Origin: a virus
Lineage: Duplodnaviria; Caudoviricetes
IMG/VR virus record: IMGVR_UViG_3300033565_000090
Coordinates: 1 to 62,347 of that record
DNA: 62,347 nucleotides
Reading direction: 5' to 3' (one strand)
This document shows, piece after piece, positions 1,718 to 27,783 of the stretch. The notes beneath the pieces were generated by a model. The model worked only from the letters and a program-made list of their open reading frames with translations, did no database searches and was not told where the DNA came from. Within the stretch, counting starts at the first letter, position 1. The number at the start of each line of letters is the position of its first letter. The position numbers and the translations under genes are program-made.

Positions 1718-1733
1718 GTATCAACTCCATTTA

Positions 1734-10101: not shown

Positions 10102-10600
10102 GGGTCACCCCGGCCCTCAGCACATTGGCGTCCGTGGGGGCCATGTCCGCAGCCAGCCAGGCCGGAACGTCGAAGGCCGGGCAGAGTTTGAAATACTCGT
10201 GGGGCTCGATCTTCCCGTCTCCGTCCAGATCCGGCGAAAGATCCCGGTGCCCCACCACCCGGGCCTCCGGGAAGCGGTCCATCAAGTCCTGCACCGCAAT
10301 CTTCAGACTGTCCCATTGAGCCTGGGTGTAGAGCCCTGGGTTCTGTTTCGAGGGTCCACCCACGCCACCCACCAGGCACACGCCGATGCTGTGCGCGTTG
10401 AATCCCAGAGCGTGGGCGCCGGGTTCCAATTCACTGCGCCCCTCGGCCACGGCACCATCCACGTCGATAAGGTAGTGGTAGCCGATGGTCTTGAACCCCC
10501 TCAGCCTGTGCCACTCGGTGACGGTCTCGACCGACACCGGGCGACCGTTGGGGCTGGCCGTGCAGTGGATAACGATCATGTCGATATGCCGGAGTTCCAT
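10094..10600 (-). CDS. Endolysin, N-acetylmuramoyl-L-alanine amidase (T7 lysozyme-like)
   Basis: IVIHCTAS, IGYHYLI, SIGVCLVGG, VVGHRD and KLCPAF Zn-amidase motifs. Confidence 0.93.
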   Translation of the reverse strand: MELRHIDMIVIHCTASPNGRPVSVETVTEWHRLRGFKTIGYHYLIDVDGAVAEGRSELEPGAHALGFNAHSIGVCLVGGVGGPSKQNPGLYTQAQWDSLKIAVQDLMDRFPEARVVGHRDLSPDLDGDGKIEPHEYFKLCPAFDVPAWLAADMAPTDANVLRAGVTRG

Positions 10601-10601
10601 T

Positions 10602-10988
10602 TCAATCCTCTCCGCGCAGGGCCATGGACCGCGCCGGGCAGTCTGCCTTGTGCTCCTTGAGTTCCTTTTCCCACCGCTCCGAAAACTCGCCAATCCTCCG
10701 GTGCCCGTGGGCGATATCGTCCTTCAGCCCCTTGTGGACCATCTCCAGAAAAGGGTGGGTGACGAACTCCTTAGGGGCCTCGTCCTTGAACGCCTGGAAG
10801 CTCTCGACAAACTTCTCGAGGGTGGCCCTCATGTCCAGAACTGCCGCCCTGAAGCTGCCGATGGCGAACTTGATCAGGAATCCAATCGCGGCGAATAGAA
10901 TCAAATAAGTAGCACTAAATACACCGATTGCCCAAATTGGTATAATCATGCTATCCGTTGATTGAGCGCCCTGGAACATGGCAAGCAT
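10602..10988 (-). CDS. Single-TM lysis-region membrane protein
   Basis: One TM helix then a coiled coil; first gene of the lysis cassette. Confidence 0.6.
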   Translation of the reverse strand: MLAMFQGAQSTDSMIIPIWAIGVFSATYLILFAAIGFLIKFAIGSFRAAVLDMRATLEKFVESFQAFKDEAPKEFVTHPFLEMVHKGLKDDIAHGHRRIGEFSERWEKELKEHKADCPARSMALRGED

Positions 10989-11060: not shown

Positions 11061-14000
11061 CTATTCGCCAGTCTTTTCCTCTGCTCCATCAGTGGATGAT
11101 CCTTTGCTTTTAACTCCGCTATTTAGTCGCTTATACCAAGAAATAGCGTCCGAGATGATCTCCTTATCCTTGGCATTCAGCGAGGCCATGAATCGACCGC
11201 GCTTCGCGGGCGGGATCGAACCAAGGGGGTGTCCGCGTTCGATGGTGCCCTTGATGGCGCGGGCCTTCCCGCCGAGGCGCAGGTATTCCGCGAACCAGTA
11301 GGAGGCACGTTCCCGATCACCCCACTGAGAGGCGCGCTTGAAGTAGTAGAGCGCGTTCCCCTTCTCGCTGATGTTGCCCGCCCCGGAATACTCCTCTTTC
11401 CCAAGGTTCTTCTTGCCCCAGTCGTTGGCGATGTCCCTGGATAGGTAGTAGGAGGCCTCGCCGGGGTCCACCGAGTAGGTCAGAAGGGCATCTTCCAGGC
11501 CGCTTCGCAGGCTTCCTGGCCGCTCCGGCTTGTTGGTGATCTTGTTCCAGAGGCGGTCCAAGGGGGTCACGTTCTTGAGCACGTAGCCCACCTTGTCCCG
11601 GATCGCCATGCCGCCCGGCTTCAGCGATGCGCCCTCGCGCCAGACGGTCGGGAAGGAGATGGACCGCCCCAGCACCAGTTCGAAGGTGGTCTTGGAGAAG
11701 GGTTCCCACCCCTTGATGATCTTCTCCGCGGGGCCCTTGGCGGCGTCTGCAGCGATGTCGCCCCAGGTTTCCTCTCCCCGGGCCACGCCCTGCACCTTGC
11801 GCGGCAGGTCGGCGGCAGAGAACCACTCCAGGGCGTCCATGACGGCGAGATCGGTGCGGATGTAGCGGATCGATCCGTCATCCCGCTTCCCGAGGATGAT
11901 GCCGTGCTTGAACTGTTTCTGGCGGCGCAGCACCTCATAATCGTCGGCGAAGAAGAGTTTGTTCCAGAGGTAGATGAGCCCGAACATGAGCGCCATGCGC
12001 AGAGCCAGGGCCGGCCCCTTGAGGGCGATGGTGCGCCCCACGGCCCCAGCCGCAGACCGCTTCCCTCCAGTCGTTTCCCGCTCGGCAGGAAGGTTCTTCA
12101 GCAGCCGCACGTATCGGGGCGCATTGACCTCCATCCAGGAGTAGAAGGGGATCATGTGGGTTCGGACATACTGCCCGGCCACCGAGACGTTTCCATAGTC
12201 GCCGATCAATTCCCGGGCCAGCTTTGCGGCCTTGTCCTTCGAGTTTCCCAGCGCGTCGATCTGGCTTCGGTTCGAGGCTGCGTAAAGATCGCGCCCCTTC
12301 CCGATCTCCTCCAGGAAGAAGCGATAGGCCGCCAGGCGTAGGATGTTCTCGCGCCAGGTGCTGAAGGTCTTGAGCCCGCCCCATGTTTTCTGAACCAGGT
12401 TCCCATTGGGCCGGTCACTGGTCAGTAGGCGGAAGGCGCCCGTCTTGTCGATGTCGGGGATCTCCGCGATGGTGATGCCCGATTCCACCACGCCCGCGCG
12501 GATGGCGTTCTGGATCTCCCGGCGCAGTTCAGGCGAAGCGGTCTGATTCACCTGGTAGGACCACATATCCGCGGCGGCCCGGGCGAAGTGCCGGGTCACG
12601 ATCCGCGGATCGTAGGCCATGGCGATGTCCAGATCGCCCATCATGTTGTTCATGCTGTAGCGCAGGATCCTCATGGGGCTGATGAGCTGCCACTGCTTCC
12701 AGGAGCTCTGCAACCCCACCCAGGCGTTCCCGAAGGCGCTGCCGTCCCGGTCGGTGAAGTTGTCGAGCTGGGTGGCGAGATTCGTAGGGATGGCCCATTG
12801 CTTCTTCTTGGTGCCCAGCGCCAGCACCTGGTGGAAGTCCTCCTTCACCAGTCCACGCTCTCCCTCCAGGAACTGATCCAGCACCCGCTCGGAGAGGGTC
12901 AGGGCCGGGTAGAAATGGTTCCCCTTGGTGGGCTGCCAGATCGTGTAGCCCTCGGGCATGAGGTCTTTCCAGGCCACGGCCTGCTCACCGAGCGCCGTTT
13001 CGATCTCCTTGGCCGACATTTCATCGATCTCGTCGGCTCCAAGTTCCGGATGCTGCGACTCGAACATCTCCCGGTTCAGATCCTTGGCCTGGGCGCGAAG
13101 CTGGGGCGCCACATCGGCGATGCGCTCCAGCCGGTCCAGGGTCTCCTTCTTCACCACGAGGCTCATGGCATCAGCCACCCACTCCGCCTCTGCCTGCTCG
13201 TAAGCCGCGTTGAAGTCGTGTGCACCTCCATGGCGCCCAAGCTGGAACCCCTTCTTCCCCATCCGGAGATCGCCCCCGGTGCTCCCGACCTGGCGCTTGT
13301 TCAGGTAGGTCATCACCTGGCGGTGGTAGTAGGATTCCACATCGTCCAGGCGGTCCTCGGACAGGATGCCGTGCTGGACCAGCTTCTCCACGATGTCGGT
13401 TGCCATGTCGGTGCGCTTACCCAGGGCCTCCCTGATTGGGGCGTTTTCCGGGGCCTTCAGCACCCTCTCGTACCGCTCAAGATCGACGCGGGCCTCTTCG
13501 GCATTCCGATAGCCGAAGGGTAGTTCTTCCGTGCCGGAGTCCACGCCCTTGTCCACGTTGCGCAGGATGTCCCGCAGCACCAGAACCCGGGTAAAGAGGT
13601 CGATCCGCTTGGGCCCCAGATCCTTCGTGACCTCGTACACCATGTCGTGGGCGACCGCCTTGGCGAAGGCGGGCCCGGCCTCGTACTGGCGCAGGGTGTC
13701 ATTCACCTGGGCCATGAGAGGGCTTTCGTTGGGGTCGATATGGTCAAAGTGGCGCGTGAAGGCGGCCTTGGCCTTCCGCAGGTTGTCGATGGCCTTGGCG
13801 AACATGGGCGAGGCCGGGGCCCCCTTCTTGGCCTCCCGCCACCGCTGCTCCACTTCATCAAAGAGAGAGGGCACGGAAACAGAATCCGGGCGTTCCCGAG
13901 TCCCGAACAGCTTGGACAGGAAGGCGCCCACGGGATGCGTGAACCCGCCGAGTTCCTGGATCCCACGGCCCTCTTCCTCGTTCATCTTGTCGAGCCACTG

Positions 14001-17000
14001 TTCGTTGGCGATTTTTTGCACAGAATCGGCACGCTCGGCCTGGAGAACTTCCCCGTGCTTGGCATACCATTCGTCCGATAAGCCCTGGAAGAGCCAGTTC
14101 CGGAAATCGTCCGGATCGCCCCCCGCAAACTCCTTCTCCACGGGCAGGCCCAGCGCCTTGCGGGCCGAGCGGACGATGTTCTTGGCCCCGATGTAGAAGT
14201 CCTCGGGTGTGGCCTTACTCTTGTTGGCGCTATCCGGCGCATAGTCGGGTGCCTGCATCTGCTTGCGCAGTTCGTCCCCGGCCCGGATCGCTTCCTCGGC
14301 CTCATTCAGGGTGTCCCGCACGGCCTCCGTGATGGTCGCCCCGCCCTCCTGCTCCGTGGCCTCCAGGAGCCCCCGGGCATCAGAGCGCAACCCCTCGGTG
14401 TAGCCCTGGGCAATGGCCGCCTCCAGGTCCGCGACCTTCTTTCGGGCGCGGGCCAGGGCCTCGGCGTTCTTGTACTCGCCCTCCATGATGCGATCCGCAG
14501 CGGCTCTGTCCTTCGCTGCATTCTTGGCCTGGTCTCGGCGCCAGTGGATGATGTCGGGGAGGACAACCTCCATCCGCCTGATGGACTGAGCGAACACTCC
14601 CGGGAGCTGGCTCTTGACCTCGCCATCCCGAATGGAAACAGTCCTGTCTCCGTCCTTCCATTTCAGTTCCCACTTCCCCTCGTCCCTGGGCGTGTAGGAA
14701 AAATGGAGTCCGTTCGGGAGTTTCACGGCAAAGCCACTGACTAGCTTCACCTCTGTCGCCTTCTTGGATTCAGAATCGAAGGTCTTCCGGGTCTCAGTCG
14801 ATTTCTCGGCCAGTTCCAGAATGGCCTTGACGATAGCCTTGGGCGTTGTGGCCTCCACCGCCGCCACGGAGTCGAGCTCCCGATCCAAGTAGGCCTTCGA
14901 CCCATAGCCATCCGTATTGTCGTAGGTGTGGATCTGCTGCTGGGCCTGCTGCTGGCTCTGGATGAAGGCTTCCAGTTCGCCCTCAAGCTGGTTGAGCTCC
15001 GCTTGGACCTTCATCTTCTCCGCGATTCGGTTGTCCCCCGAGAAGGCCGCGGCCATCTCCTCGAAACTCATCCCGCCCCCGCCAAGATCCTCCACGTCGC
15101 CGTGGTCCAGAATGTCGGCGTCCATCACCTGGTCGATGAACTTCTGCTTGTTGGCAAGCACCTGGGCGAAGAAGGTGTCCGGGCCGCCCTCCACCGCGTA
15201 GGTGTAGACATGCACGGGGTCAAACATATTCCCGCTGCGCTCCATGCGCCCGATCTCCTGCTCCAATTCGGCAGGGGTCAGGGGAAGCTGGAGGATGTGC
15301 ATGGCGATCAGCCGGTCCTGGATGTTCACGCCCGTGCCGAGCGTCTTGACCATGCCCATCACGAAACGCACTTCACCTGTGCGCACCTTTTCAAAGACCG
15401 CCTCCCGGGCCTTGTCGCCACTGGGAAGCTGGTCCACGATCTCGCTTTCGGGAACCCCTGCGGCCACAAGCTGGCGCTTGATTTCGCGGAACATATTGAA
15501 GCGTTGGGATTCCGGAACCTTGTAGTCCCCGTAGTTGCTGGGGCTCTGGTAAAGCTGGCAGAAAATGGCCTGGGCGCCCCTCTGCTCCTGGGTTTCCTGG
15601 TAGTGGGTCAGGGCGTTCTTGACCATGGCCTCCACCTTGCCGCCTCCCGAGACCTTGGCTTCAGGGTCTACTAAGCGCAGGTCCAGGGCCGCCTGCGAGG
15701 CCCGGGTGTAGAGCGTGCCCGGCACGAATCGGGTCTCCACCTTGGTCTTGCCGGAGCTCATCCAGGCCCGGTACACGGAGCGGATGAAATTCATAAACTC
15801 GTCCGTTCGGGCATCAGCCTTGACGATGACGGTCTTGATGCCGCCTCCGGCCAGCTTGGGAACGCCCGACCGCTTGATCTCGCTGCGGCGAACCCGGTGC
15901 ATCGCCTGGAATAGGGCCGCCTGCAGTTCCGGCATGTTGGCGAACCGGCGCAGGCGGCTAACGCCCTTGACGGCCCCCGTGATGTCCGACTCGGGCTGAG
16001 AGTAGATGTCCCCGAAGGTCTTCACAAAGTCGTCGAACTGGTTGATGCCCATGCCCTCCAGCAGGTCCGGGCGCAGGTAGCGCAGGTTCGTCCAGATCTC
16101 GGCCATGGTGTTGGTGATGGGGGTTCCGGTCATCAGCACCACCCGCCCCCGCTTGTCGTGGATGGCCTTGGTCTTGAGGAACAGGGACAGGCCCCGCTTC
16201 GAGGAATCCCGGTCGATGCCCTTGGTATCCGTGAACTGCGTGAAGAAGTCCAGCCGCTTGAACTGGTGGCTCTCGTCCACGATCAGGGCGTCGATGCCCA
16301 GGCCGTCCCAGTCCATCACCTTGTCGGTCTTCCGCTGGAGGAGATCATCCATGCGCGCCGCGGCGCGGTTCTTTGCCTTCTCGGCCTTCTTACTTGTAGA
16401 TTTTCCGCCCACGTCTTCAGAGTCGGCCTCTTCCGAGGGCCCGTTCACCATTTCGCGGAGATTGTCCACGTATTGGAGACGGGCCCGAATGGCTTGCGCC
16501 AGGGGATCCCTGGAGTTGATATCGACCTTGAGGCCACGCATGGTCTCTTCCAGGGCGTCCATCTGCTCATTGATGTAGGCGTTCACCCGCTCCGGGCTAT
16601 CCGGAATGACACTCAGATCCTCATGGGAAAGGATCGCCATGTCGAAGTCCATGGTGGCGAGGCGCGTCAGGAAGATCTTACGGGTCCGAGCGTTGGGGTT
16701 GCTGGGGCGCACCAGGATCCGAGCGCCTGGATAGAGCTGGCGCATCTGGGCCGCAAACCCCGGGACCACAGAGCGCATCGTGGCGATCATCGGCTTGTTG
16801 GCGATGCCCAGGCGCTTCATTTCGTAGGCAGCGGTACCACCCGTGATTGTTTTCCCGGAACCGACCACATGCGCCAGGAGGGTGTTCTGCACCGTGGCAC
16901 GGAAGGCGCCCTCCTGCTGGAAGGGTTCCATCGCAAAGGGGCGACCGTTGAAGACCTTGGCCTGCCCGGGGAAGGTGCCATTGGGGAGCTTGGGCCACTT

Positions 17001-20000
17001 GGGCTTGACCACGCTGCGGAACAACTCGTTGAAGGTCGTCTGCACGCCCTGGGCATGGGGATTGCCCTCCACGCGCAGCCAATCCTGGAAGGCGGCCCGC
17101 ATCTCGCGGACCTTGCCCATGGCGACCTCCGTCACCACGGGATCCTTGTAGACCTTCCCATCGGTGCGCCAAGTGGCTTCATGGGATCCGTCCCAGAGCA
17201 GGCCCGATGCGAAGATCGCCTCGGGACTCACCGCGGCTTGGTGTCCCTTGAGGGTCGCCACCCACTTGAGATACTTTTCCTTCGCCTCCACCTTCATTCT
17301 GTTCTTGTCGAAGATCAGTTGCTTCAGGTTCTCGTCGAAGCCCACCTTCGCGTCGATGCCCACGACATCCCGGAGAAAGTCCTGATAGACCTCGGGCTTG
17401 ACCCAGGTGGCCCCCATCCTCACGGTCATCCCCTGGATGGGGACTTCCGGGGGCAGGGCCTTTTCCAAGTCCGCCACGTTTCGGTCGAAGCGCCCGGGGT
17501 TCTCCTTGGCCGCCTTCTTGGCCGCGTTGAACTTCTTGCGCACCTCCCCGGACAGGTAGATCCAGGAAGGCTCGAAGGAGCCGTCAGGGAGCTCGTAGGC
17601 CAGCCCCTCCGACTTCACTTGGAACTTCACATCCTCGGGTTCCTGTTTCAGCAGGCCCGCCATATAGTCGATGTCCACCCGCCCCTTGCCCATCATGGAC
17701 AGGAGCACGGCCTCCTCGTTGTTCGAGGCCGAGGATGCCAGTTCGGCCTTGGTGTTCTGACGATGGGATAGGATGTCGGCCTTGACGTAGGCCTTCTTCC
17801 ACTCCCCCGTCTTCGGATCCCGGGTTTTCTCCTCGGATTCCAGGGCCATGGCCTCGAAGTAGTTGGCATCGTCCGTGACGTGCTTATTGACCGCCGTGCG
17901 ATGGAAGAAACACTTGTCCTTCCCGCCGCGACGGTCCACGAAGGCGTCGTAGAGGCGATTCAGTTCCTTGCGCAGGGGCTTCAGTTCGGCGTCCGTGGCG
18001 TCGGTGCCTTCCTTGGTCCGCAGTTCATCCAGAGTCTTGATGAGATCCAGGTAGACCTGGGCGCTCTGGTTCATTTCCTTGATGATCTTCGCACTCTTGG
18101 CGCCGCCGTACTGCGCCGGGGTCAGCCAGGTGCCTTCCGAATGAACCATGGGGATCCCACCCCGGAGGGACACATCCCCATCTCCCACGGGGCCATGAGC
18201 CTCCTTGCTCTCTTGGAGTACCCGAGTGGGCACGCCGCTTTCCGCCCACCCCTCAGGAAGGCGGGCCATGGCCGTTTGGAGCGCCCGGGAAAACTCGTCC
18301 TGGGTGCCCTTCCATTCCACGGACATCTGGCCGCCGCCATCCCGGTACATGGTGTTGACCACCGGGACGCCCAGGATCTGCTCGGGGTTCCTCGACCAGT
18401 ACTCGTTCATGTGGACGACCACTTCCTGACCTTCTCGGTTGTCCCCGATACCCAGGTCCACCGTCCCCGCCCAGCCCTGGGCGCCATCGAACCTCTGAGC
18501 GCCCTTCCGCTTGCGGAACACCAGGATGTCGGTCGTGACCTGCGTCCCTGCGTTCTTGGAGAAGGCATTGTTTGGCAGGCGGATGGCCCCCACCAGGTCG
18601 GCGCTCTCGCCGATGATCTTCCGGTGGCTGTTGTTCATGGCGTCCATGGTGCCGGTGCTCGTGATGGCCGCCATGATGCCGCCCGGCTTCAGTTGGTCGA
18701 TGCCGCGCTTGAAGAAGAAATTGTGCAGGGCCATGCCCTCGATGCGGGTGCTCTCGTCGAAGGGCACGTTGCCCACGATTAGATCCACGCTGTTGCTGGG
18801 GATCTTGGCATCCTGATAGCCACCCTTGTGGATATCGGCCTCGGGATAGAGAGCCTTCAGCAGATCCGCCGTGAAGGGCTCCAGTTCCACGCCCGTCAAG
18901 CTGGACTGGCCGCGGAGACCTTCCGGCATGAGCCCGAAGAAGAGACCGCTGCCGGCGCTCTGCTCCAGAACGGCGCCGCCCTTGAAGCCGAACCGGCCCA
19001 CCATATCCCACATAGCCGAGACCACATCCGGCGCCGTGTAATGGGCGTTGATGGTGGAGGCCTTGGCCTTTCTTAGCCCATCCTCGCCGATCTCGTCGCG
19101 GATCTGCTTATGGATCTCCAGCCATTCCTCGCCCCACTTCCGGGCCTCTTCGCCCATGTAGCGCCCAGCGTCATCCCCATAGCGTTCCGTATAGGATTCA
19201 AAGGTGCGGGCCAAGGCATAGTCTACGGCCTTCCCCAGGGCGCCCCAGCCCACCCACTTGGAGAGGGTGTTCTGCTCGGCGGGAGTCGCCTGGTCCAATC
19301 GCCCTTCGGCCTGGAGCTTCTTCAGGGTGCGGATGGCCTCCAGGTTCCCCTTGGCGGCCCGCTTCTTCCCTGCTTCCGTGCTGAGATTCGTGGCCTTGAG
19401 CTCATCCCGGTCCACCCGGAAGGGCTTGGCTACTCCTGATCGGGTTCCAGGGTGTACCGGGTTGCCAGCAGCAGAGCCTCCTCCGGACTCAACCCCTGCA
19501 CGTTCACCATCACCGTGGCTCGGTTCAGGATTTCCGACGACTTCTTGTCGATCTGCTTCTGGAGTTGCACCTCGGCCACTCGGTTTTCCACCGCCGCCTG
19601 CTCCAGTTTCAGGATGCCCTCCGGATCCTGTTCCCTCAGATACTCCAGCACGGCCTGATCCAGACCGCTCGTTCGGAACGTCACGGGTCTGTTCGGATCC
19701 TTGGTCAGGCTTGGACTCTGGGCCATTGGTAGCTCCATCCTCTGTAATTGTGTCGTTTTTGACCTGTTTCGCAAGGGTTTCCCCCTTGGCCTTGGGCTCA
19801 TCCTCCGGCATCAGGGCCTCGGCAATGGTCCGCTTCTCTGCCGCGAAAGCCGCCCCGATCTCCTCGTGGCGACGGTTCCGAGCCGCGGAATCAGGGATGT
19901 TTGCTTCCGTGACCAGGGCCTGGCGCCTGTCATGGATGTCCTTCGCCTTGTCGAAGCGCGCAATGAGGTCCGAACGCTCCGGAGGGATGACATGCTTCTC

Positions 20001-23000
20001 CTTGCCCACGGCGAACTTCCGGCCCCCGTCTTCGGTGACATGCCAGTTCGCGGGCTTTTCCGCAACTTCTGCGGATTCCGGCGCGGGCTCGGCCTTGATC
20101 CCCATGAAGGCCTTGGCCTGGGCCTCACTCTTGAAGATGAATCCAGGGATGGCCCCATTCCCTCGGTAGCTGGAGTAGCGTCCCTCATGGTCCTTCGCTT
20201 TGGACCTCAGTGCAGAGAATGCTTCATCGGAAACCCGATCCGCCATCTTGACCGTCCAGATGGGCTCCTGGGTCTTGGTGTGCCGACCGGCTACCAAGGA
20301 CATGCCCATGGGTGCGATGATGGGATCTTTCCATCCCCAATCAGGGTGCATCGACCACCCAGCGCCACCGGATGGTTGCCCTGGACGGTGCTTGGCTGCG
20401 GCCTCGGGGGTAGGCTCCATCCATTGAATGTTGAGCGTGCGCGTTTGGCCATCCTGGATGGGAAGGTGCACAGTCCACCAGTCGGCCTCTCGGGTCGAGC
20501 GAGGCTCTGGCGTCCGCGTTTCGACGGTTCCACCGATGGATTCAAGAATCTCCCGGCCACCCTCCCGGGACAGATCGAGCCCTTGAGTGGCAACCAGCGA
20601 ATAGAGGGTCGCGGCCCTCCGCTGTCCATCCGGGTCATTATCCTTGTTGAACGTCAGCAATCTCTTGGTCTGGATCGAGGTTCCAAGCCCCCTCATCGCC
20701 TCCATCTGGCGGGCTTCGAGTTCCTTCTGCTCCTGGGCACTCATGTCGGCCCCACCCATACCGGACTTCGCCTCGGTCTCCTGCCCTCCCACCTTGATCC
20801 CAGTTTCCTTCTCGAACTCGGCGACGGTGCCCCAGCTGCGCACGATGGGCAGTCCGCCCTTCAGCGTGAGATCCCGGGTCTTCACCTGGCCGTCATCCGT
20901 GACGTGCATCCGGTATTCCCGGCCCTCGTGGGTGAAGGTGTCTCCTTCCTTCACTTCCTGGATGTTCCCGAACTTGGTTTCGGGGACATCCAGAGGGTTG
21001 CCCTTGCCCTCATACTTCTGCCGCAGTTCCGCCATCCTGCCCCGGATCTGGTCCTGCTTCTCGTTCCACTTGGCCCGGATCTTCGGGTTCATCTTGTTCA
21101 GGGGCTTGGCGACGATGGATGCCAGTTCTGCCCCGAGCGAATCCAGTTCCGCCCGATCCTTCGGCGTCATCCGTGCAAGGATCTCATCGGCCTGGGCGTT
21201 GGGGTCTTCCTTCGGCTGCGGAGTCTCTACTTGCTGGGCTTGTGGTTCGGGTTCGGGTGGAACTTGCCCCTGATCGTCACTCCCAGGCAGTTCTCCAACA
21301 CTCCCGGGTTCTCCTCCGAGAACCTCTGGAGCGCGTTCGGGCCGGGCGGGATGACTGTATTGGACGGACGGGGGCTGGTCGCCACGGGCGGCACGCTGGC
21401 CGGTGCGCTCTCGCTCGGATTTGTGGGCCTGGAGCTTTGATTCTGCGGCATTGAGTTCTGGTCCTGCGCCATAGCTGAAACCCCCGGTATAGCTAACGGT
21501 CGATCCATCCGGCAGGTTGAACACCACCGGGTTCGCCTTTAAGTATTCGTCGGCCTTGGCCATCGCGCCAGCCAAAGCCTCCTCGCTGTCACTGTGCGCC
21601 CAGAACTCGTCCCCGCTCACATGGAAGGCATCTTCGCCAAGGCCCGCGGCCCGCAGGGCATCGCCCATGTAGGCAAGGAGCTCATCACCCGCACCGTGCC
21701 CCAGGCTGTCATTCACCCACTTGAGGGAGTCAACATCCATCGAAGCCTTGACCGGCTTGGGGGCCAATTTCTGCGCCTCGTCCCAGGCGCGCCGGTTGGG
21801 GAGTCCCGTCTTCTCGCTGGTGAGGAGGACGCGCTGCGTCTCCTCCAGACTCATCTCGGCCACGTTCTTCCGGAAGGCCGGATCCTGCCTACGGTCGCCC
21901 TGCCGCTGATCGACTTCCACCGGAAGGCTCTCGTGACGAGGATCGCCGGGAACCGTCAAGGATTCCTTGACGGTTGGATCAGGTGTCAAGGAATCCTGTA
22001 CTACTGCCTCGGGTGCCTGCGGGGCCATATCGGGCGCAGGAGGTGCCTGAGGCTGCAGGGCGGCACTCCCGGCGCCGAGGTCGGCCTGGGCCTCGCTGAG
22101 GAGCGCCTGGGCCGCCTGGGCGTCCTGCTGGGCGCTCTCCACGAGGGGGTGCTGCTCCGCGACCCGGGCCGTCTGCTCGGCCACCTTGCGCAAATTCTCG
22201 ACGTGTTCAGATTCGACAGTAGCGCCTGGGCCCACCATGGCCCCCATGGGAGCTCCAAGAAGGAGCCCGCCAAGCGCATTGGTGATCCGCTCACCGTTCG
22301 CGTTCTTGTAGGCCTCGGGGTCGTAGGTCCGCCTGACGGCCATGCCAACCTCGCCCTGGCCCGTTTCCTCGATAGCCTCCGTGATGCCCCCGAGGGCCAG
22401 CCTCGCGGCGCGCCCAGACGCACCCCCCTTGGCTGCAGCCTTGGCCGCGCCCTTGAAGAAAACCCCCTCCGTGCCCTCGGCGGCAATCTCCGCCAGCTTC
22501 CGCTTTAGACCAGTCGTCCCCTTGGCCTCCAGCTTCGCCAGAAGGCCCTTGCCCCCGGGCAGGCCCTGGCTTATGAAGGTGGCTGGAATGGCCTCGGCCG
22601 ATGCGGCAAGGGCGGCCTCTGCTGGCCCGAGCCCCTTTTCCAATGCGGACCGATAGGCATCGGCACCAATCTGAGTGCCTTCCAGCTTGGCCGAAGTCGC
22701 CGCCGCAACCCGCGCAGCCACCTCGGGAGACTTGCCTGCCAGAATCGCGGAGTTGTAGGCCCTCCACCCCGTCGCCATCTGGACGGCCAACATCGGCGCG
22801 TTCTCGGCCACAATGTTCGTGTAAAGCCAAGGGTTCTCGACCGGATTCAGCGCAGCCCAATCGGTGCTACCGTCCGGTCGCGTGATGGCCTTCGGCTTCT
22901 TGATGCTCTCCGAAAAATACTCGTCCGTCTGGTGCTGGCGCTCCATGAAGTCGGCAGCAGCCGGAAGGGTCTCCTTCGAAACGGGCTTGGTCCAGCGTTT

Positions 23001-23381
23001 CCAGGCGCGCCTCCCGGCTTCATCCACCGTGGTCGTTCCAACCAGGGGCGAGACAAGATCGTTCAGAGTGAGGCCTGCCGCCTCCACGACACCAAGGCCA
23101 GCGCCCACGATCTCCTGGGCGGGTCGGATGATCCCCTTGTTGATGGACGCCAGAACGGATGTTCCGGCTGACTTCTGGGCCTCAGGATCCGGGTTGACTT
23201 GGACGTTCCTTCGGTAAGGGTTGACCGGGATGGGGTGGTCGATGTTGGCGCCGGCCGCAGCAGGCGCCACCGCATCCGGGTTGAAATCAGGGTTGAAATC
23301 CGCGTTGAAGGTAGGCTTCGCCTCAGGCGCGCGCGCGTCAGGATTGAAGTCCGGATTGAAATTCGGATCGAACCCAGGCAT
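11061..23381 (-). CDS. DarB-like giant polyvalent virion protein: GGDEF + N6-adenine methyltransferase + SNF2-type helicase + C-terminal helical domain
   Basis: 4106 aa. MTase: NAHYT, VLEQSAGSGLF, VGNVPF. Helicase: AHVVGSGKT, IVDESH, TGTPITN, GTGVNIQ, QEIGR. GGDEF: TGLPNRR, DVDSLKWVNDSLGHGAGDELL, SGDEF. Follows the ejection-protein genes. Confidence 0.9.
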   Translation of the reverse strand: MPGFDPNFNPDFNPDARAPEAKPTFNADFNPDFNPDAVAPAAAGANIDHPIPVNPYRRNVQVNPDPEAQKSAGTSVLASINKGIIRPAQEIVGAGLGVVEAAGLTLNDLVSPLVGTTTVDEAGRRAWKRWTKPVSKETLPAAADFMERQHQTDEYFSESIKKPKAITRPDGSTDWAALNPVENPWLYTNIVAENAPMLAVQMATGWRAYNSAILAGKSPEVAARVAAATSAKLEGTQIGADAYRSALEKGLGPAEAALAASAEAIPATFISQGLPGGKGLLAKLEAKGTTGLKRKLAEIAAEGTEGVFFKGAAKAAAKGGASGRAARLALGGITEAIEETGQGEVGMAVRRTYDPEAYKNANGERITNALGGLLLGAPMGAMVGPGATVESEHVENLRKVAEQTARVAEQHPLVESAQQDAQAAQALLSEAQADLGAGSAALQPQAPPAPDMAPQAPEAVVQDSLTPDPTVKESLTVPGDPRHESLPVEVDQRQGDRRQDPAFRKNVAEMSLEETQRVLLTSEKTGLPNRRAWDEAQKLAPKPVKASMDVDSLKWVNDSLGHGAGDELLAYMGDALRAAGLGEDAFHVSGDEFWAHSDSEEALAGAMAKADEYLKANPVVFNLPDGSTVSYTGGFSYGAGPELNAAESKLQAHKSERERTGQRAARGDQPPSVQYSHPARPERAPEVLGGEPGSVGELPGSDDQGQVPPEPEPQAQQVETPQPKEDPNAQADEILARMTPKDRAELDSLGAELASIVAKPLNKMNPKIRAKWNEKQDQIRGRMAELRQKYEGKGNPLDVPETKFGNIQEVKEGDTFTHEGREYRMHVTDDGQVKTRDLTLKGGLPIVRSWGTVAEFEKETGIKVGGQETEAKSGMGGADMSAQEQKELEARQMEAMRGLGTSIQTKRLLTFNKDNDPDGQRRAATLYSLVATQGLDLSREGGREILESIGGTVETRTPEPRSTREADWWTVHLPIQDGQTRTLNIQWMEPTPEAAAKHRPGQPSGGAGWSMHPDWGWKDPIIAPMGMSLVAGRHTKTQEPIWTVKMADRVSDEAFSALRSKAKDHEGRYSSYRGNGAIPGFIFKSEAQAKAFMGIKAEPAPESAEVAEKPANWHVTEDGGRKFAVGKEKHVIPPERSDLIARFDKAKDIHDRRQALVTEANIPDSAARNRRHEEIGAAFAAEKRTIAEALMPEDEPKAKGETLAKQVKNDTITEDGATNGPESKPDQGSEQTRDVPNERSGSGRAGVSEGTGSGGHPETGAGGGGKPSGRGATPEADRQEVVGNPEPSHGDGERAGVESGGGSAAGNPVHPGTRSGVAKPFRVDRDELKATNLSTEAGKKRAAKGNLEAIRTLKKLQAEGRLDQATPAEQNTLSKWVGWGALGKAVDYALARTFESYTERYGDDAGRYMGEEARKWGEEWLEIHKQIRDEIGEDGLRKAKASTINAHYTAPDVVSAMWDMVGRFGFKGGAVLEQSAGSGLFFGLMPEGLRGQSSLTGVELEPFTADLLKALYPEADIHKGGYQDAKIPSNSVDLIVGNVPFDESTRIEGMALHNFFFKRGIDQLKPGGIMAAITSTGTMDAMNNSHRKIIGESADLVGAIRLPNNAFSKNAGTQVTTDILVFRKRKGAQRFDGAQGWAGTVDLGIGDNREGQEVVVHMNEYWSRNPEQILGVPVVNTMYRDGGGQMSVEWKGTQDEFSRALQTAMARLPEGWAESGVPTRVLQESKEAHGPVGDGDVSLRGGIPMVHSEGTWLTPAQYGGAKSAKIIKEMNQSAQVYLDLIKTLDELRTKEGTDATDAELKPLRKELNRLYDAFVDRRGGKDKCFFHRTAVNKHVTDDANYFEAMALESEEKTRDPKTGEWKKAYVKADILSHRQNTKAELASSASNNEEAVLLSMMGKGRVDIDYMAGLLKQEPEDVKFQVKSEGLAYELPDGSFEPSWIYLSGEVRKKFNAAKKAAKENPGRFDRNVADLEKALPPEVPIQGMTVRMGATWVKPEVYQDFLRDVVGIDAKVGFDENLKQLIFDKNRMKVEAKEKYLKWVATLKGHQAAVSPEAIFASGLLWDGSHEATWRTDGKVYKDPVVTEVAMGKVREMRAAFQDWLRVEGNPHAQGVQTTFNELFRSVVKPKWPKLPNGTFPGQAKVFNGRPFAMEPFQQEGAFRATVQNTLLAHVVGSGKTITGGTAAYEMKRLGIANKPMIATMRSVVPGFAAQMRQLYPGARILVRPSNPNARTRKIFLTRLATMDFDMAILSHEDLSVIPDSPERVNAYINEQMDALEETMRGLKVDINSRDPLAQAIRARLQYVDNLREMVNGPSEEADSEDVGGKSTSKKAEKAKNRAAARMDDLLQRKTDKVMDWDGLGIDALIVDESHQFKRLDFFTQFTDTKGIDRDSSKRGLSLFLKTKAIHDKRGRVVLMTGTPITNTMAEIWTNLRYLRPDLLEGMGINQFDDFVKTFGDIYSQPESDITGAVKGVSRLRRFANMPELQAALFQAMHRVRRSEIKRSGVPKLAGGGIKTVIVKADARTDEFMNFIRSVYRAWMSSGKTKVETRFVPGTLYTRASQAALDLRLVDPEAKVSGGGKVEAMVKNALTHYQETQEQRGAQAIFCQLYQSPSNYGDYKVPESQRFNMFREIKRQLVAAGVPESEIVDQLPSGDKAREAVFEKVRTGEVRFVMGMVKTLGTGVNIQDRLIAMHILQLPLTPAELEQEIGRMERSGNMFDPVHVYTYAVEGGPDTFFAQVLANKQKFIDQVMDADILDHGDVEDLGGGGMSFEEMAAAFSGDNRIAEKMKVQAELNQLEGELEAFIQSQQQAQQQIHTYDNTDGYGSKAYLDRELDSVAAVEATTPKAIVKAILELAEKSTETRKTFDSESKKATEVKLVSGFAVKLPNGLHFSYTPRDEGKWELKWKDGDRTVSIRDGEVKSQLPGVFAQSIRRMEVVLPDIIHWRRDQAKNAAKDRAAADRIMEGEYKNAEALARARKKVADLEAAIAQGYTEGLRSDARGLLEATEQEGGATITEAVRDTLNEAEEAIRAGDELRKQMQAPDYAPDSANKSKATPEDFYIGAKNIVRSARKALGLPVEKEFAGGDPDDFRNWLFQGLSDEWYAKHGEVLQAERADSVQKIANEQWLDKMNEEEGRGIQELGGFTHPVGAFLSKLFGTRERPDSVSVPSLFDEVEQRWREAKKGAPASPMFAKAIDNLRKAKAAFTRHFDHIDPNESPLMAQVNDTLRQYEAGPAFAKAVAHDMVYEVTKDLGPKRIDLFTRVLVLRDILRNVDKGVDSGTEELPFGYRNAEEARVDLERYERVLKAPENAPIREALGKRTDMATDIVEKLVQHGILSEDRLDDVESYYHRQVMTYLNKRQVGSTGGDLRMGKKGFQLGRHGGAHDFNAAYEQAEAEWVADAMSLVVKKETLDRLERIADVAPQLRAQAKDLNREMFESQHPELGADEIDEMSAKEIETALGEQAVAWKDLMPEGYTIWQPTKGNHFYPALTLSERVLDQFLEGERGLVKEDFHQVLALGTKKKQWAIPTNLATQLDNFTDRDGSAFGNAWVGLQSSWKQWQLISPMRILRYSMNNMMGDLDIAMAYDPRIVTRHFARAAADMWSYQVNQTASPELRREIQNAIRAGVVESGITIAEIPDIDKTGAFRLLTSDRPNGNLVQKTWGGLKTFSTWRENILRLAAYRFFLEEIGKGRDLYAASNRSQIDALGNSKDKAAKLARELIGDYGNVSVAGQYVRTHMIPFYSWMEVNAPRYVRLLKNLPAERETTGGKRSAAGAVGRTIALKGPALALRMALMFGLIYLWNKLFFADDYEVLRRQKQFKHGIILGKRDDGSIRYIRTDLAVMDALEWFSAADLPRKVQGVARGEETWGDIAADAAKGPAEKIIKGWEPFSKTTFELVLGRSISFPTVWREGASLKPGGMAIRDKVGYVLKNVTPLDRLWNKITNKPERPGSLRSGLEDALLTYSVDPGEASYYLSRDIANDWGKKNLGKEEYSGAGNISEKGNALYYFKRASQWGDRERASYWFAEYLRLGGKARAIKGTIERGHPLGSIPPAKRGRFMASLNAKDKEIISDAISWYKRLNSGVKSKGSSTDGAEEKTGE

Positions 23382-23393
23382 CTCGATTCCTTT

Positions 23394-24602
23394 CTACTGA
23401 ACGGGCACCCAAGCGCTCTTGGTCTTGGACCAGGCCAGCGGTTTCCCGTCCGGGCCCGTCTTGAACCACACTCCCGTCTTCGGGTTCTGCCATGACCCGT
23501 TGCCGTGGGCCTTGAAGCCCAAGGCCTTGAAGTCAGGGCCAGCCTGAGGGGCGGGCCTGGGCGATGCGGGGGGAGCAGGGGCAGGAGCCCCGATGGGAGA
23601 CTGCCGGAACTCTGCAGCCACGTCCTTGATGCCCCCCACCACTTCCTTCTGGTTGCTTCCGGTCTTCGGATCGTTGTAGATATCACCCCGGACTTGGGCC
23701 GCCAGCTTGAGGGCTATCCAGTTCTCCTTGGTGCCGCGGTTGGGATCCTGGGCCCACTCCGCCGCCGCCCGCTCGTCCGCGAAGCCCCCGGGTTGCCCGA
23801 TGGTCTTCTTTGCCATCCCGAACCGGATCTGGAAATCGGAGGGGCGACCACCGCCACGACCACCGCCAGAACTATTGATGCGTCGAATCGATAGTTCGTA
23901 GTCGCGGAGCCATTTCTCATTCTTGAGTCTGAGTTCCTCGTCCTTCCGGTCCAAGTTGCGGTCGGTCGCGTCTCGCTTCCCTTGCTGGGCCTGGGCGTAG
24001 GCCATCCAGTGCAGGGCATCCCCGGGCTTGGCCTGGAGCGCGTAGAGCATCTTCTGGGTCACATGCACGGGGTTCCCGCGCGTCGGCTTGCCATCCGGGC
24101 CCACACCCCCCGCGGCGTACACCGAATAGGTCGGGTCCGAGGGGTCTTGTTCCACATCATCCGCCAGGGCGATGCCGTGGATGTTCCCAAAGAGCCCGGT
24201 CTGGTTGAGCATCTTGGTCGCAGGCTCGAACTGGCCCAGGGTGATGGCGCGGGAGGCGCTGGCGATGTTCTTGAGCTGGGTGTCTTCTCTTGCCTTGAGG
24301 GCCGCGGCCCGGTACTTCCGCTCCAGGTCTCCCCGGTTCCCCTGCTGGGCGATATCCGCCAACTTGTTCAGGCGGTCCTCGTCCGTTTCACCCTCGGGGC
24401 TCTGGTCCTCGATCTGGTGCTGCTGGCGGATCCGGTCCATTTCGGTGTTCCGGTGATCCCACTCTTTCTGGGTCTGCCCCGCCTGCGCGATGCTCTGGTC
24501 GAGCCGCTGGCGGTCCATGGCACCCTGGGTCTGGCTCCGAACAAAGTTGTTCGCACCCTGGCCGATGGCGCTCCCCGCGAGAATCATCCCAAGCGAAGCC
24601 AT
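23394..24602 (-). CDS. Putative internal virion/DNA ejection protein
   Basis: Start MASLGMIL, 2 nt after the upstream stop; Gly/Gln-rich helical protein in the ejection-protein position. Confidence 0.65.
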   Translation of the reverse strand: MASLGMILAGSAIGQGANNFVRSQTQGAMDRQRLDQSIAQAGQTQKEWDHRNTEMDRIRQQHQIEDQSPEGETDEDRLNKLADIAQQGNRGDLERKYRAAALKAREDTQLKNIASASRAITLGQFEPATKMLNQTGLFGNIHGIALADDVEQDPSDPTYSVYAAGGVGPDGKPTRGNPVHVTQKMLYALQAKPGDALHWMAYAQAQQGKRDATDRNLDRKDEELRLKNEKWLRDYELSIRRINSSGGGRGGGRPSDFQIRFGMAKKTIGQPGGFADERAAAEWAQDPNRGTKENWIALKLAAQVRGDIYNDPKTGSNQKEVVGGIKDVAAEFRQSPIGAPAPAPPASPRPAPQAGPDFKALGFKAHGNGSWQNPKTGVWFKTGPDGKPLAWSKTKSAWVPVQ

Positions 24603-24604
24603 GG

Positions 24605-25342
24605 TTAGTACCCCCCCAGCGACAGCGGCAAGCTCGAACCGTCGAAGCTCGGCGTCATGTTTCCCAAGGTGATCGGGCTTCCACCCAGAGATTGCTTCAC
24701 CATCTGGGAGTCCACCATCGTAGAAAGATCCGGCATCTGGGCGGCCTGCTGGCCTGTCGGCTGGCGCTGCCCGAAGGCGTATCCCAGAGCGCCCAAACTC
24801 GACGCGAGACCCTGGGCGCCCTGCCCTGCGGCGTTCCCCCACATCCCAGCCTGTTGACCGTAGAAATCCGTCACGTTCTGGTTGCCCTGGGCCACCAGAC
24901 CAACCTGCCCAGGCATCTGCTTACCGGCGGCAAGCAGGCGCTCCCGCAGGGAATCCCTGGCCTGGAGGCCCTGGCCAAAGGCGTTGGAGAGCGCGTAGGC
25001 ACGTCCGGTCTCCAGGGTGTTCTTCTGGTCCAGGCCCGAGCCCAACATGCCCTTGCGGGCCATGGACATCTCGTTGTTGCGCCCGGCCTGGTCGAAATTG
25101 GCCTGGATCTTGGACCAGGTGGGCCCCAGATTCAGCGGGCTTTCCGAACTCGCCTGCTTGGTGAGTTCGTCCCGAATGGGGCCGTAGTTGCGCTCGTATT
25201 CGTCAAGCTGCTGCTGACGAAAAGCCTGATCCGCCTGAAGGGCGGACTGCTGGAGCGCCATGGCGCGCTTGTGCTGTTGGCCTGCCTGAACGGTGGAGTA
25301 GGCGCTGACTAAGACGCCTGCGACTCCGACTGCGACTGGCAT
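24605..25342 (-). CDS. Putative DNA ejection (pilot) protein
   Basis: Hydrophobic N-terminus, Gln/Ala/Gly-rich, ARKGMLGSG motif typical of P22 gp7-like proteins. Confidence 0.7.
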   Translation of the reverse strand: MPVAVGVAGVLVSAYSTVQAGQQHKRAMALQQSALQADQAFRQQQLDEYERNYGPIRDELTKQASSESPLNLGPTWSKIQANFDQAGRNNEMSMARKGMLGSGLDQKNTLETGRAYALSNAFGQGLQARDSLRERLLAAGKQMPGQVGLVAQGNQNVTDFYGQQAGMWGNAAGQGAQGLASSLGALGYAFGQRQPTGQQAAQMPDLSTMVDSQMVKQSLGGSPITLGNMTPSFDGSSLPLSLGGY

Positions 25343-26025
25343 AACTCCCCCACTTGGTAGGCATCGTTGCCCAAAAAGTGGATAGTCAGGCCTCCGACCG
25401 TGAGGCTATCCAAGCCGCAAACCTCGACCGGGAGATACCCCTGGAGGCGTGCGTGTTTGTTGTACACCGCGACGGCTTTCCCCATGAATCCCCGCCGCGA
25501 GGTGAGCATGAGCGCCCCGAACAGGCGGCGATGGTGGGCGTCCAGCGCAATGGATCCCAGTTCCGCAGGGCAGAAGGTCTCCAAGCCAGCGTCGAGGTAG
25601 GGCCAGCGTTCGATGCGAAGCTGGTACGAGCGAAGATCGGGCGCGTCAGCGATCCGGATGAACCCGCTGCACTGCCGGGCGAACAGGTCCGCGGCCTTGT
25701 TCTCCGTCTGGATGTTCGTCAGGATCTCCATGCCGCCCGTCTCCGCGAACACGAAACGAACGGTGTCCCGGGCGATCTCCTCCGCGATCTTCCCGTGGAA
25801 TCCGTCCAGAAGGCAGGTGTGAACCTCGAAGGTGTCTTCGCTGTAGGGATCGAGGACGATGCAGCCTCCCCCCGAATCCTCCAGCAGCACATGGACCTGA
25901 TCGAAGGCAGGGGTGATGTCCATGGGCCCCATGTCTTTGCCCATGGTGGCCCAGCGGTACACGTCCGGGTGGTTCAAGATCCGGTTGATTTCTGGAATGT
26001 CCGTGGAGGTTGCGAGGCGCAGCAT
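25309..26025 (-). CDS. GNAT-fold virion-associated protein (P22 gp14/DUF2824-like)
   Basis: INRILNHPDV, FEVHTCLL, NKAADLFARQCSGF; usual position before ejection proteins. Confidence 0.7.
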   Translation of the reverse strand: MLRLATSTDIPEINRILNHPDVYRWATMGKDMGPMDITPAFDQVHVLLEDSGGGCIVLDPYSEDTFEVHTCLLDGFHGKIAEEIARDTVRFVFAETGGMEILTNIQTENKAADLFARQCSGFIRIADAPDLRSYQLRIERWPYLDAGLETFCPAELGSIALDAHHRRLFGALMLTSRRGFMGKAVAVYNKHARLQGYLPVEVCGLDSLTVGGLTIHFLGNDAYQVGELCQSQSESQAS

Positions 26026-27111: not shown

Positions 27112-27783
27112 CTATGCCTCCTGATCCTGAAAAACAACTGTCACGCCGACCTCTCCTACTCCGCCGAGATTGGTCACGGAGAGGTAGGCCGCATTGGTCA
27201 CGGGGCTGTCCTGGTTGGCAAAGCTGGCCTCCTTCAGCAGCACCGTGAGCGCCCCGGTCTCGGTGGTCACTTGAAGCTCACAGTCCGATGGCTGGCTTGG
27301 GGGCGTAGTGGGAGGGCGTGAGGCATCCGCCGTTCGCGCCGCAGCCGTCGAATAGAGCCGGACCCGAGCAGGGCGAGTGGTCGTTATCCTGTAGAGCCGT
27401 GCGGTTTTCGCAAGCGTCACGTCCTGAGTCTCCGTGCTCCCAGTCGCCAGTGCTCCCGTGGTCCAGGTTGCCGAAGCCCGAGCGGGGCCAAGTCCATGGG
27501 CACCAGCAGGCCCAACGGGTCCAACTGGCCCTACTGGGCCTTGTTCACCGGGAGCTCCAGGTGATCCTGGAGGCCCTGTTGGGCCAGTGGGTCCAGCAGG
27601 GCCTGGATCCCCCAGCACGGGGCTATTGGATGCTCTATCAGGTTTCACCACACCCGGTTGAGGCTTGGTTTGCGAACGGGCTTGAAGCGCCCCCTCCAGA
27701 GAGCGGAATCGGGCAGCAACCTCGCCAAAGAGCCGAGTCAGTTCAGCCTGGGTAACACCGTTCGGGATGAGCCCACTGCTCAC
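27112..27783 (-). CDS. Collagen-like tail fibre protein
   Basis: About 12 Gly-X-Y triplets ([37 protein letters not shown]). Confidence 0.75.

Follow-up and report, generated by a model that had tools for sequence, protein, structure and literature searches.

A predicted diguanylate cyclase module of a phage-type GGDEF lineage within a giant DarB-like provirus protein

The stretch of DNA analyzed here (the window) is a provirus record of IMG/VR, IMGVR_UViG_3300033565_000090, of 62,347 bp and 62% GC. Its minus strand carries a giant open reading frame (ORF) that encodes P0001, a DarB-like polyvalent protein of the late or virion type, within which we delimited a GGDEF module (Table 1). A diguanylate cyclase domain had been proposed at positions 21410-21910 from the sequence alone (hereafter the original prediction). 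Translation of 21410-21910 on the plus strand meets many stops, and the module is coded on the minus strand; the strings that had been quoted in favor of the domain all lie inside the minus-strand ORF 11061-23381, at aa 491-594. The proposed span corresponds to aa 491-657 of P0001 and covers most of the module at aa 496-672, but misses its last ~15 residues. GC content is even along the giant gene (0.60-0.68), and megablast of the whole gene against 50,697 phage records returned no match.

Profile searches bore out the claim that the domain belongs to the GGDEF family. Pfam PF00990 (GGDEF) matched the protein at aa 524-596 with 30.8 bits (E 3.1e-7; gathering threshold, 23.8 bits), a match that spans profile positions 6-87 of 161, and it scored 36.3 bits (E 1.8e-10) on the DNA in six frames. 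When the PDB was searched with the single sequence, 42 chains were returned (E up to 1), all of them named as GGDEF-domain proteins. With a clade profile built from 20 relatives (alignment A2), all 49 of the 49 PDB matches were GGDEF diguanylate cyclases and profile positions 16-158 were covered, the E-values being 3.5e-17 for the best match (7e6g), 1e-14 for WspR and 1e-11 for PleD. Judged by these alignments, the GGDEF domain in P0001 is real and complete. An mCpol/Cas10-type domain was also considered and ruled out, because all PDB relatives were GGDEF cyclases and no mCpol or Cas10 chain was among them.

The bounds of the module were examined in an alignment of 174 of the 214 stored profile-matching proteins, which excluded P0002 and any row that had a truncated start or under 70 residues upstream. 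Across these 174 relatives, conservation starts abruptly at aa 496 and ends near aa 672. In the N-terminal extension, R497 is found in 160 of the relatives, R498 in 165, D500 in 118, R504 in 157 and M510 in 161, and the RxxD-type pair R497..D/E500 is present in 113. The string DQRQGDRRQ, to which attention had been drawn upstream of the signature, is indeed there, and its DRRQD is not incidental, since it is the conserved module start [ED]RRxD. This start holds an RxxD and may be a displaced inhibitory site (I-site) for cyclic di-GMP (c-di-GMP), a dimer contact or something else. A long coiled-coil stalk was considered for the same region and rejected: the conserved extension is just ~25 residues long, and in most relatives a helix probably starts at Ser-Pro-Glu-Glu (aa 511-514). 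At the opposite end, we regard the RA.RG..PP tail as part of the domain because Churro_042, a stand-alone relative from a cultured phage, terminates directly behind it; for the same reason, a role of the tail as a proteolytic linker was ruled out.

The phage module shares with PleD and WspR the fold family and the motifs TGLPNRR, D.D..K..ND..GH..GD, GDEF and K...R. It differs from both in having His and Ser at RxGGDEF, extra conserved N- and C-terminal segments, and no sensor or receiver domain. It also differs in two deletions that mark the whole lineage in comparison with WspR and other cyclases of solved structure: the first helix is shorter by ~11 residues, and the four residues at the place of RxxD are missing. 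The original prediction had stated that no RxxD stands just before the signature, and this proved correct, given that a 4-residue deletion relative to WspR sits at the place of RxxD and that only 2 of 80 viral relatives have an RxxD within 12 residues upstream. Aligning the window with PleD, we take D549 to be equivalent to D327, S552/L553 to F330/F331, N557 to N335 and D566 to D344, under a presumed PleD numbering that agrees with the alignment ranges. With the numbering likewise presumed, H587 would correspond to R366, S589-G-D-E-F593 to G368-G-E-E-F372, K654 to K442 and R657 to R446. On the basis of this map, the metal, base-selecting, catalytic and phosphate residues are kept, and the metal-binding Asp and the substrate motif, pointed out in the original prediction, are all present in P0001 (D549, N557 and D566). 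In PleD, F330, F331, D344, R366 and K442 contact the substrate, and N335 and D344 select GTP (PMC7186502; this and the other papers are cited for those of their sections that were available to us). In palm-domain cyclases, Asn specifies guanine and Ser specifies adenine (PMC12657218). Hypr-type specificity, for cyclic GMP-AMP (cGAMP), was ruled out because D566 is kept.

The signature itself reads SGDEF and not GG(D/E)EF. The statement that SGDEF variants can be active is supported by ECA3270 of Pectobacterium atrosepticum, a natural SGDEF enzyme that is reported to be active, while another cyclase described in the same paper is inactivated by Ser (PMC3974145). ECA3270 resembles P0001 in its natural SGDEF but is a cellular signaling protein; the two are compared at the level of the family, and the reported cyclase activity is ECA3270's own.

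Of 151 viral loci that were confirmed, the best 80 were used for residue counts. D549, N557 and G590-D-E are present in all 80, a conservation that in the GDEF and D.D.LK..N columns is partly due to ascertainment because the scan patterns required a GDEF or a D.D.LK..N stretch. In alignment A1 (31 sequences, including 8 cellular cyclases), D549, N557, G561, G590 and D591 are invariant. K654, R657, G565 and D566 lie outside the scan patterns and are thus free columns. Among these, K654 is present in all 80 loci and R657 in 74, and position 566 is Asp in 69 and Asn in 10. Position 587 is His in 73 loci and Arg in 7, and position 589 is Ser in 54, Lys in 13 and Gly in 8. Compared with its nearest relative, L084, whose module is 98% identical, the module shows 16 synonymous and 3 non-synonymous codon differences over 191 codons, indicating that selection on it is purifying.

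When 1.84 billion cluster representatives were searched exhaustively with phmmer, 11,936 matched at E<=1e-3, 1073 at 1e-10 and 155 at 1e-30; the lineage thus comprises at least 155 clusters (50% identity) at E<=1e-30. For the tree, 107 rows were used, namely 66 rows of the phage type (one in three of 193, with the window and Churro_042 added), 20 of 21 cellular rows and 21 of 80 genome loci, after rows with stops or with matches to fewer than 120 profile positions had been dropped. A branch of length 1.5, with a support of 100% in the Shimodaira-Hasegawa-like approximate likelihood ratio test (SH-aLRT), separates 38 cellular GGDEF domains from all phage-type rows, in a tree that is unrooted and whose cellular sample is small and biased toward the most similar sequences. 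Three loci from metagenome-assembled genomes (MAGs) of Acidobacteriota group with the phage-type rows. When one genome per species was searched (185,579 species), only ~5 close loci were found, all in Acidobacteriota MAGs and at 39-45% identity. These close genome-borne copies (L004-L007 and L010, from Sulfotelmatobacter, Edaphobacter and Acidobacteriaceae) are presumably prophages. Motif and tree place the module in a GGDEF lineage of the phage type, whose distinctive signature comprises H.SGDEF, the lack of an I-site, the [ED]RRxD start and the RA.RG..PP tail.

The proteins that carry the module were then compared by length and content. Contig ends probably truncate many of the best 150 cluster representatives; 83 of the 150 reach 2000 aa or more, 33 measure 1000-1999 aa, 27 measure 400-999 aa and 7 are shorter than 400 aa. 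Of the best 80 viral loci, 55 have the module in an open frame of 2000 aa or longer, 10 in a shorter frame cut by the end of the locus and 15 in a closed shorter frame, only one of these last being below 600 aa. A length-restricted search returned 50 module-bearing proteins of 2258-7186 aa, whose precomputed Pfam families are of the polyvalent type (ART-PolyVal, LPD38, InPase, RadC, 2H and others; names checked on three proteins). Databases label relatives as 'N12 class adenine-specific DNA methylase/GGDEF domain-containing protein'. The part of P0001 at aa ~450-720 is common to ~200 of 213 other stored proteins, the methylase-helicase part to ~10 and the C-terminal part to 2; because it is mainly aa ~450-720 that is shared, the module is a shuffled cassette. 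A cassette swap was seen between P0001 and P0002, which are 91% identical over aa 1-906 and 95% identical over aa 3140-4106 but differ in the central ~2230 aa: P0002 has ~1555 aa with the helicase families PF13871/PF13872 in place of the DarB-like methylase and SNF2 of P0001 (aa ~907-3139). The N terminus of P0001 carries short FNPD-type repeats, DPNFNPDFNPD ... FNADFNPDFNPD, and repeats of this type also occur in P0002 and L084. In the C-terminal ~1280 aa, which are otherwise unassigned, there is a weak candidate membrane segment, the sole stretch of P0001 with a Kyte-Doolittle mean of at least 1.5 over 19 residues (mean, 1.63).

Stand-alone relatives of the module were found in cultured phages. 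The 50,697 phage records contained 63 GGDEF-module matches; in the 60 that were listed, the strong matches all belong to Yuavirus (Pseudomonas) and Vojvodinavirus (Bordetella), at 34-43% identity, and several are annotated 'diguanylate-cyclase GGDEF'. The carriers include the Yuavirus phages YuA, Churro, PaSz-4 and MP1412 and the Vojvodinavirus phages LK3, CN1, CN2, FP1 and MW2, and their genes fall, like the window module, on the phage side of the branch with 100% SH-aLRT support. Churro carries its homologue as a free-standing ORF of 156 aa; the surrounding gene block is non-structural, with a 'DNA binding domain protein' gene on one side and an 'antirestriction protein' gene on the other. 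Churro_042 resembles the P0001 module in its SGDEF, its deleted I-site and its RA.RG..PP C-terminal tail, but is without the [ED]RRxD start, is shorter by a hairpin of 17 residues and keeps the Arg before the signature. The location of the Yuavirus copy beside an annotated antirestriction gene suggests that it is needed at the start of infection.

Partner domains were sought in the phage-type clade using profiles from one seed each, iterated within the stored protein set, and the resulting counts are given without a background frequency from polyvalent proteins that lack GGDEF. An inorganic pyrophosphatase domain (Pfam InPase) occurs in 48 of the 193 clade proteins and directly adjoins the GGDEF module (gap <=60 aa) in 21 of these 48, upstream in 12 and downstream in 9. 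Neighbors of this kind are found in P0006, P0015, P0016, P0024, P0030, P0153 and others. A 2H phosphoesterase is present in 9 of the 193, directly upstream of GGDEF in 7, and RelA/SpoT lies upstream of the GGDEF module in 5; four of these five RelA/SpoT carriers also have 2H, the order in four proteins being RelA/SpoT - 2H - GGDEF. Two tandem GGDEF copies were observed in 9 of the best 150 representatives, namely the free-standing P0078, P0079 and P0081 (478-544 aa) and six giant proteins. GDEF is kept in both copies in 8 of the 9, and the signature of the first copy is degenerate in P0082. Tandem GGDEF-GGDEF proteins may be self-sufficient intramolecular dimers. Together, the adjacency of InPase and the tandem copies fit a cyclase with pyrophosphate as a by-product and a requirement for two half-sites. 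In P0001 itself, the pyrophosphatase, 2H, RelA/SpoT, ART, RadC and LPD38 profiles from relatives all came up blank (filters off, E up to 100).

The DarB-like nature of the carrier, which had also been proposed, was confirmed by a match to the PHROG family 'DarB-like antirestriction' (E 0, aa 1088-2823), and P0001 has, by domain prediction, the arrangement that characterizes the DarB type, an N6-adenine methylase fused to a superfamily-2 helicase. The methylase-helicase part matched 127 phage records, 68 of them over at least 80% of the query, with 27-31% identity over ~85% to the giants of BcepMigl, CSP3, Ralstonia phages, PEp14, PBC5, SopranoGao and Itty13. P1 darB aligned with the methylase core only (aa 356-537 of the 1736-aa query, 28%, E 1e-15). 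P1 DarB, JC1 gp69 and the proteins of BcepMigl, CSP3, PEp14 and PBC5 resemble P0001 in their dyad of methylase and SNF2 helicase; unlike P0001, P1, the Bcep22-like podoviruses, PEp14 and PBC5 have no record among the 60 of 63 GGDEF-module matches listed. DarA, Hdf, DdrA, DdrB and Ulx were not named among the PHROG matches of 30 neighboring ORFs, no search targeted at them having been made. Consistent with the description of polyvalent proteins by Iyer et al. 2017, P0001 combines several unrelated enzymatic domains and is coded together with portal-terminase packaging genes and late genes.

The genes are ordered terminase, portal, head, internal virion protein, fiber, giant gene and endolysin, and the giant gene ends a podovirus-like late structural operon. 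The giant gene of Bcep22-like phages is likewise the last of the morphogenesis module, ahead of lysis. The Bcep22-like podovirus JC1 has a matching layout, in which an acetyltransferase, placed like the GNAT gene inside the late operon of the window, and a 510-aa virion protein are followed by the 4515-aa DarB-like gp69, the last morphogenesis gene before lysis, and gp69 was detected in CsCl-purified virions with 51 unique peptides (PMC9144972). Homology and synteny with JC1 gp69 make it probable that P0001 is a virion protein too and is packaged. The virion RNA polymerase of N4 provides a precedent for a very large injected protein. Among the ten ORFs flanking the giant gene, the acetyltransferase was the sole Pfam match. 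The structural proteins of the window are common only to its nearest relative, L084, and a few others. PHROGs revealed no common neighbor when the ORF directly upstream of the giant gene was examined in 10 other viral loci: five of these ORFs had no match, two matched families of unknown function, two were endolysin-like and one was metallopeptidase-like. No tRNA genes were found in the provirus.

Table 1. Features of the window, with residue positions in P0001 where they apply.
Feature	aa in P0001	Window position	Strand	Basis or remark
Giant ORF P0001, 4106 aa		11061..23381	-	polyvalent, DarB-like late/virion-type; Pfam GGDEF, Helicase_C, SNF2; PHROG DarB-like, E 0
FNPD-type N-terminal repeats	1-37	23271..23381	-	
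Pro/Ala/Gln-rich linker ahead of module	430-495	21897..22094	-	unconserved
Quoted string DQRQGDRRQ	491-499	21885..21911	-	located in P0001
GGDEF module	496-672	21366..21896	-	bounds set by conservation among relatives
Clade-specific N-terminal extension, [ED]RRxD...RKRVxEM[ST]PEEMR..LLT	496-521	21819..21896	-	contains RxxD (R497..D500)
Quoted string LLTSEKTGLPNRRAW	519-533	21783..21827	-	located in P0001
TGLPNRR, start of canonical GGDEF domain	525-531	21789..21809	-	motif and alignments
Quoted string SMDVDSLKWVNDSLGHGAGDELL	547-569	21675..21743	-	located in P0001
DVDSLKWVNDSLGHGAGD, with metal Asp D549 and guanine-specifying N557 and D566	549-566	21684..21737	-	alignments; roles from PMC7186502, PMC12657218
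Quoted string FHVSGDEFW	586-594	21600..21626	-	located in P0001
Signature hairpin HVSGDEF	587-593	21603..21623	-	H for Arg and S for first Gly of RxGGDEF
Predicted phosphate-binding pair K654..R657	654-657	21411..21422	-	opposite Lys and Arg of WspR AK..GRN in the alignment, shifted by one residue
Clade-specific C-terminal tail, G.RA.RG..PP.V		21366..21410	-	conservation; end of Churro_042
Unconserved Pro/Glu/Gln-rich linker behind module	673-735	21177..21365	-	
DarB-like adenine methylase and SNF2 helicase dyad	1088-2823	14913..20120	-	phrog_10089, E 0
Weak candidate membrane segment	3785-3803	11970..12026	-	Kyte-Doolittle mean
phrog_3657 protein		4631..5707	-	
RecE-like exonuclease		5720..6751	-	
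Amidase endolysin, directly downstream of giant gene		10094..10693	-	phrog_822, E 1.5e-50
482-aa ORF directly upstream of giant gene		23394..24842	-	no family match; position of the 510-aa virion protein gp68 of JC1
ORF with weak 'DNA ejection' PHROG match		24605..25342	-	E 4.5e-5
GNAT acetyltransferase		25309..26025	-	Pfam Acetyltransf_3, 25.7 bits (cut-off 25.4)
Tail fiber-like protein		27112..27783	-	
Internal virion protein homologue, 1440 aa		28213..32535	-	phrog_511, E 1e-24
Major head protein		35792..36694	-	
Portal / head-tail adaptor		38064..40469	-	
Terminase large subunit		40488..41939	-	
Repressor-like regulator		50669..51409	-	
phrog_1499 protein, SbcC-like N terminus		54923..56221	+	

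A related architecture has been described before. Iyer et al. 2017 (PMC5512222) reported an Acetonema longum prophage protein with GGDEF, SWI2/SNF2, adenine methylase, peptidase and ART domains. Like P0001, this protein (WP_004096050.1) is a giant prophage protein that combines GGDEF with a SWI2/SNF2 ATPase and a DNA adenine methylase; unlike it, P0001 has no zincin peptidase or ART domain in Pfam. The same authors called GGDEF 'not very widespread' in this setting and proposed that cyclic nucleotide signals may disturb host responses or act on rival elements. The idea of an injected cyclase is not new, since both the occurrence of GGDEF in polyvalent proteins and the same conjecture were already in that paper. 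What the present analysis adds is the description of the lineage, the residue analysis and the adjacency of pyrophosphatase, none of which appears in the sections of PMC5512222 available to us. The mCpol/OptS protein of Panoptes resembles the phage module in being a minimal palm-domain cyclase involved in phage-host conflict, but it belongs to another palm branch without the GGDEF motif, is encoded by the host and makes 2',3'-c-di-AMP (PMC12657218).

We favor, with a probability of roughly 0.55, the reading of the module as a diguanylate cyclase that is competent in catalysis, lacks feedback control and is borne by a polyvalent protein of the virion type. According to this reading, aa 496-672 would form a self-contained GGDEF module between two low-complexity linkers, and two such modules, each with GTP-Mg, would pair to give c-di-GMP and two pyrophosphates. 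The retained residues suggest that the module is probably active as an enzyme, and c-di-GMP would be the expected product of such an activity. No product inhibition is predicted, because the I-site loop is deleted. Since the carrier is encoded in a late operon and is DarB-like, as are giant proteins in the virions of Bcep22-like podoviruses, the enzyme is probably packaged and would reach the next host with the DNA; once packaged, it would have a good chance of being delivered in active form. As a consequence, c-di-GMP would be raised in the next host ahead of any phage gene expression, the candidate pay-offs being an altered surface, pili or motility (superinfection exclusion) or disturbed cyclic-nucleotide immune signaling. 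The full scenario of an injected cyclase, which requires each of these steps, is offered tentatively.

Several observations weigh against the favored reading. Relative to PleD, several substrate-contacting or signature positions are replaced, with H587 for R366, S552/L553 for F330/F331 and S589 for the first Gly, and VCA0965 became inactive once its first signature position was made Ser (PMC3974145). The NCBIfam GGDEF model TIGR00254 scored 25 bits, below its cut-off of 37.4, a shortfall that fits a divergent and shortened lineage. P0001 has one GGDEF copy and no pyrophosphatase domain; no dimerizing domain is evident in the protein, and its conserved N-terminal extension is short. A search of the provirus for PilZ domains found none. 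Because the gene is late, the enzyme would also be present in the producing cell. The available sections of the LK3 paper describe hyper-biofilm lysogens, a phenotype that they do not tie to the GGDEF gene. For P0001 or any other member of the phage lineage, the literature available to us held predictions and annotation only, and no bench evidence was found in it.

Among the alternative explanations, it is possible, but improbable, that the module is an active palm-type cyclase with a product other than c-di-GMP, be it linear pppGpG, a dinucleotide of mixed or adenine type or some further signal that would mimic, jam or feed host cyclic-nucleotide defense. Such a product would be in keeping with the changes of the lineage at the substrate contacts (His for R366 in 73 of 80 loci, Ser/Leu for F330/F331, and Ser or Lys for the first Gly), with the Asn that replaces D566 in 10 of 80 loci, and with the wider nucleotide-signal toolkit suggested by 2H directly upstream in 7 of 9 proteins and RelA/SpoT in 5 of 193; moreover, related minimal palm cyclases make other dinucleotides (PMC12657218). 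By contrast, the guanine pair is kept (N557 is invariant, and D566 is kept by the window module and by 69 of the 80 loci), and all PDB relatives are GGDEF proteins of the diguanylate cyclase type.

We assign a similarly low likelihood to an active enzyme that acts late in the producing cell and is not functionally delivered, whether it changes the matrix or surface before lysis or is simply co-translated baggage. The gene belongs to a late operon, its protein would accumulate in the infected cell, injection and refolding of a protein of ~450 kDa are hypothetical, and for the stand-alone Yuavirus homologues expression is from the genome rather than from a structural gene. This explanation does not account well for the presence of homologous giants in virions (JC1, PMC9144972), nor for the fact that the lineage lies overwhelmingly inside polyvalent proteins, the rationale of which is delivery (PMC5512222); the Yuavirus copies, too, adjoin an annotated antirestriction gene, a placement that points to a need when infection begins.

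Slightly less probable still is a module that is catalytically dead or nearly so and whose part in the giant protein would be to sense GTP or c-di-GMP by binding, or to contribute to structure or packaging. GGDEF domains that are degenerate and have binding or different functions have been described (PMC3974145), and the non-canonical SGDEF, the His in place of the preceding Arg, the score of TIGR00254 under its cut-off, the single copy and the lack of an evident dimerizer would all be compatible with a loss of catalysis; the conserved RRxD at the module start could conceivably bind c-di-GMP. However, the metal Asp, the acidic pair of GDEF and the Lys/Arg phosphate pair are kept nearly throughout a deep lineage, GDEF is kept in both tandem copies in 8 of 9 cases, the pyrophosphatase neighbor recurs and selection is purifying, and a domain that only binds would not need all of these features together. 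Finally, a chance resemblance of motifs in a long GC-rich ORF, which might be suspected from the single Pfam match (profile positions 6-87 of 161, 30.8 bits), is refuted by the relatives' profile, which matches GGDEF proteins of solved structure along the full domain (E 3.5e-17), and by the 1073 cluster representatives that match at E<=1e-10.

If the favored reading of the module as an uninhibited diguanylate cyclase is extended to its relatives, the deep, phage-specific GGDEF lineage without an I-site might, as a speculative proposal, be a constitutive second-messenger generator delivered by virions, which would flood the host with c-di-GMP before phage genes are read. If this were true, pili, flagella or receptors would be shut off against superinfection, or cyclic-nucleotide immunity would be jammed or decoyed. 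The concept dates from 2017; new here are the delimitation of a distinct lineage, its bias toward giant proteins, its pyrophosphatase, 2H and tandem partners, and its presence in cultured phages. The concept also becomes easier to test, given a compact module at aa 496-672, a list of residues and a 156-aa stand-alone gene in cultured Pseudomonas and Bordetella phages, and assays should be simplest with the forms that occur naturally as GGDEF-pyrophosphatase or as tandem GGDEF-GGDEF. In the literature available to us, we found no bench demonstration of a phage delivering a second-messenger synthase together with its DNA; if shown, such delivery would be a way of taking over the host not seen before and would connect c-di-GMP signaling with phage infection in a new manner.

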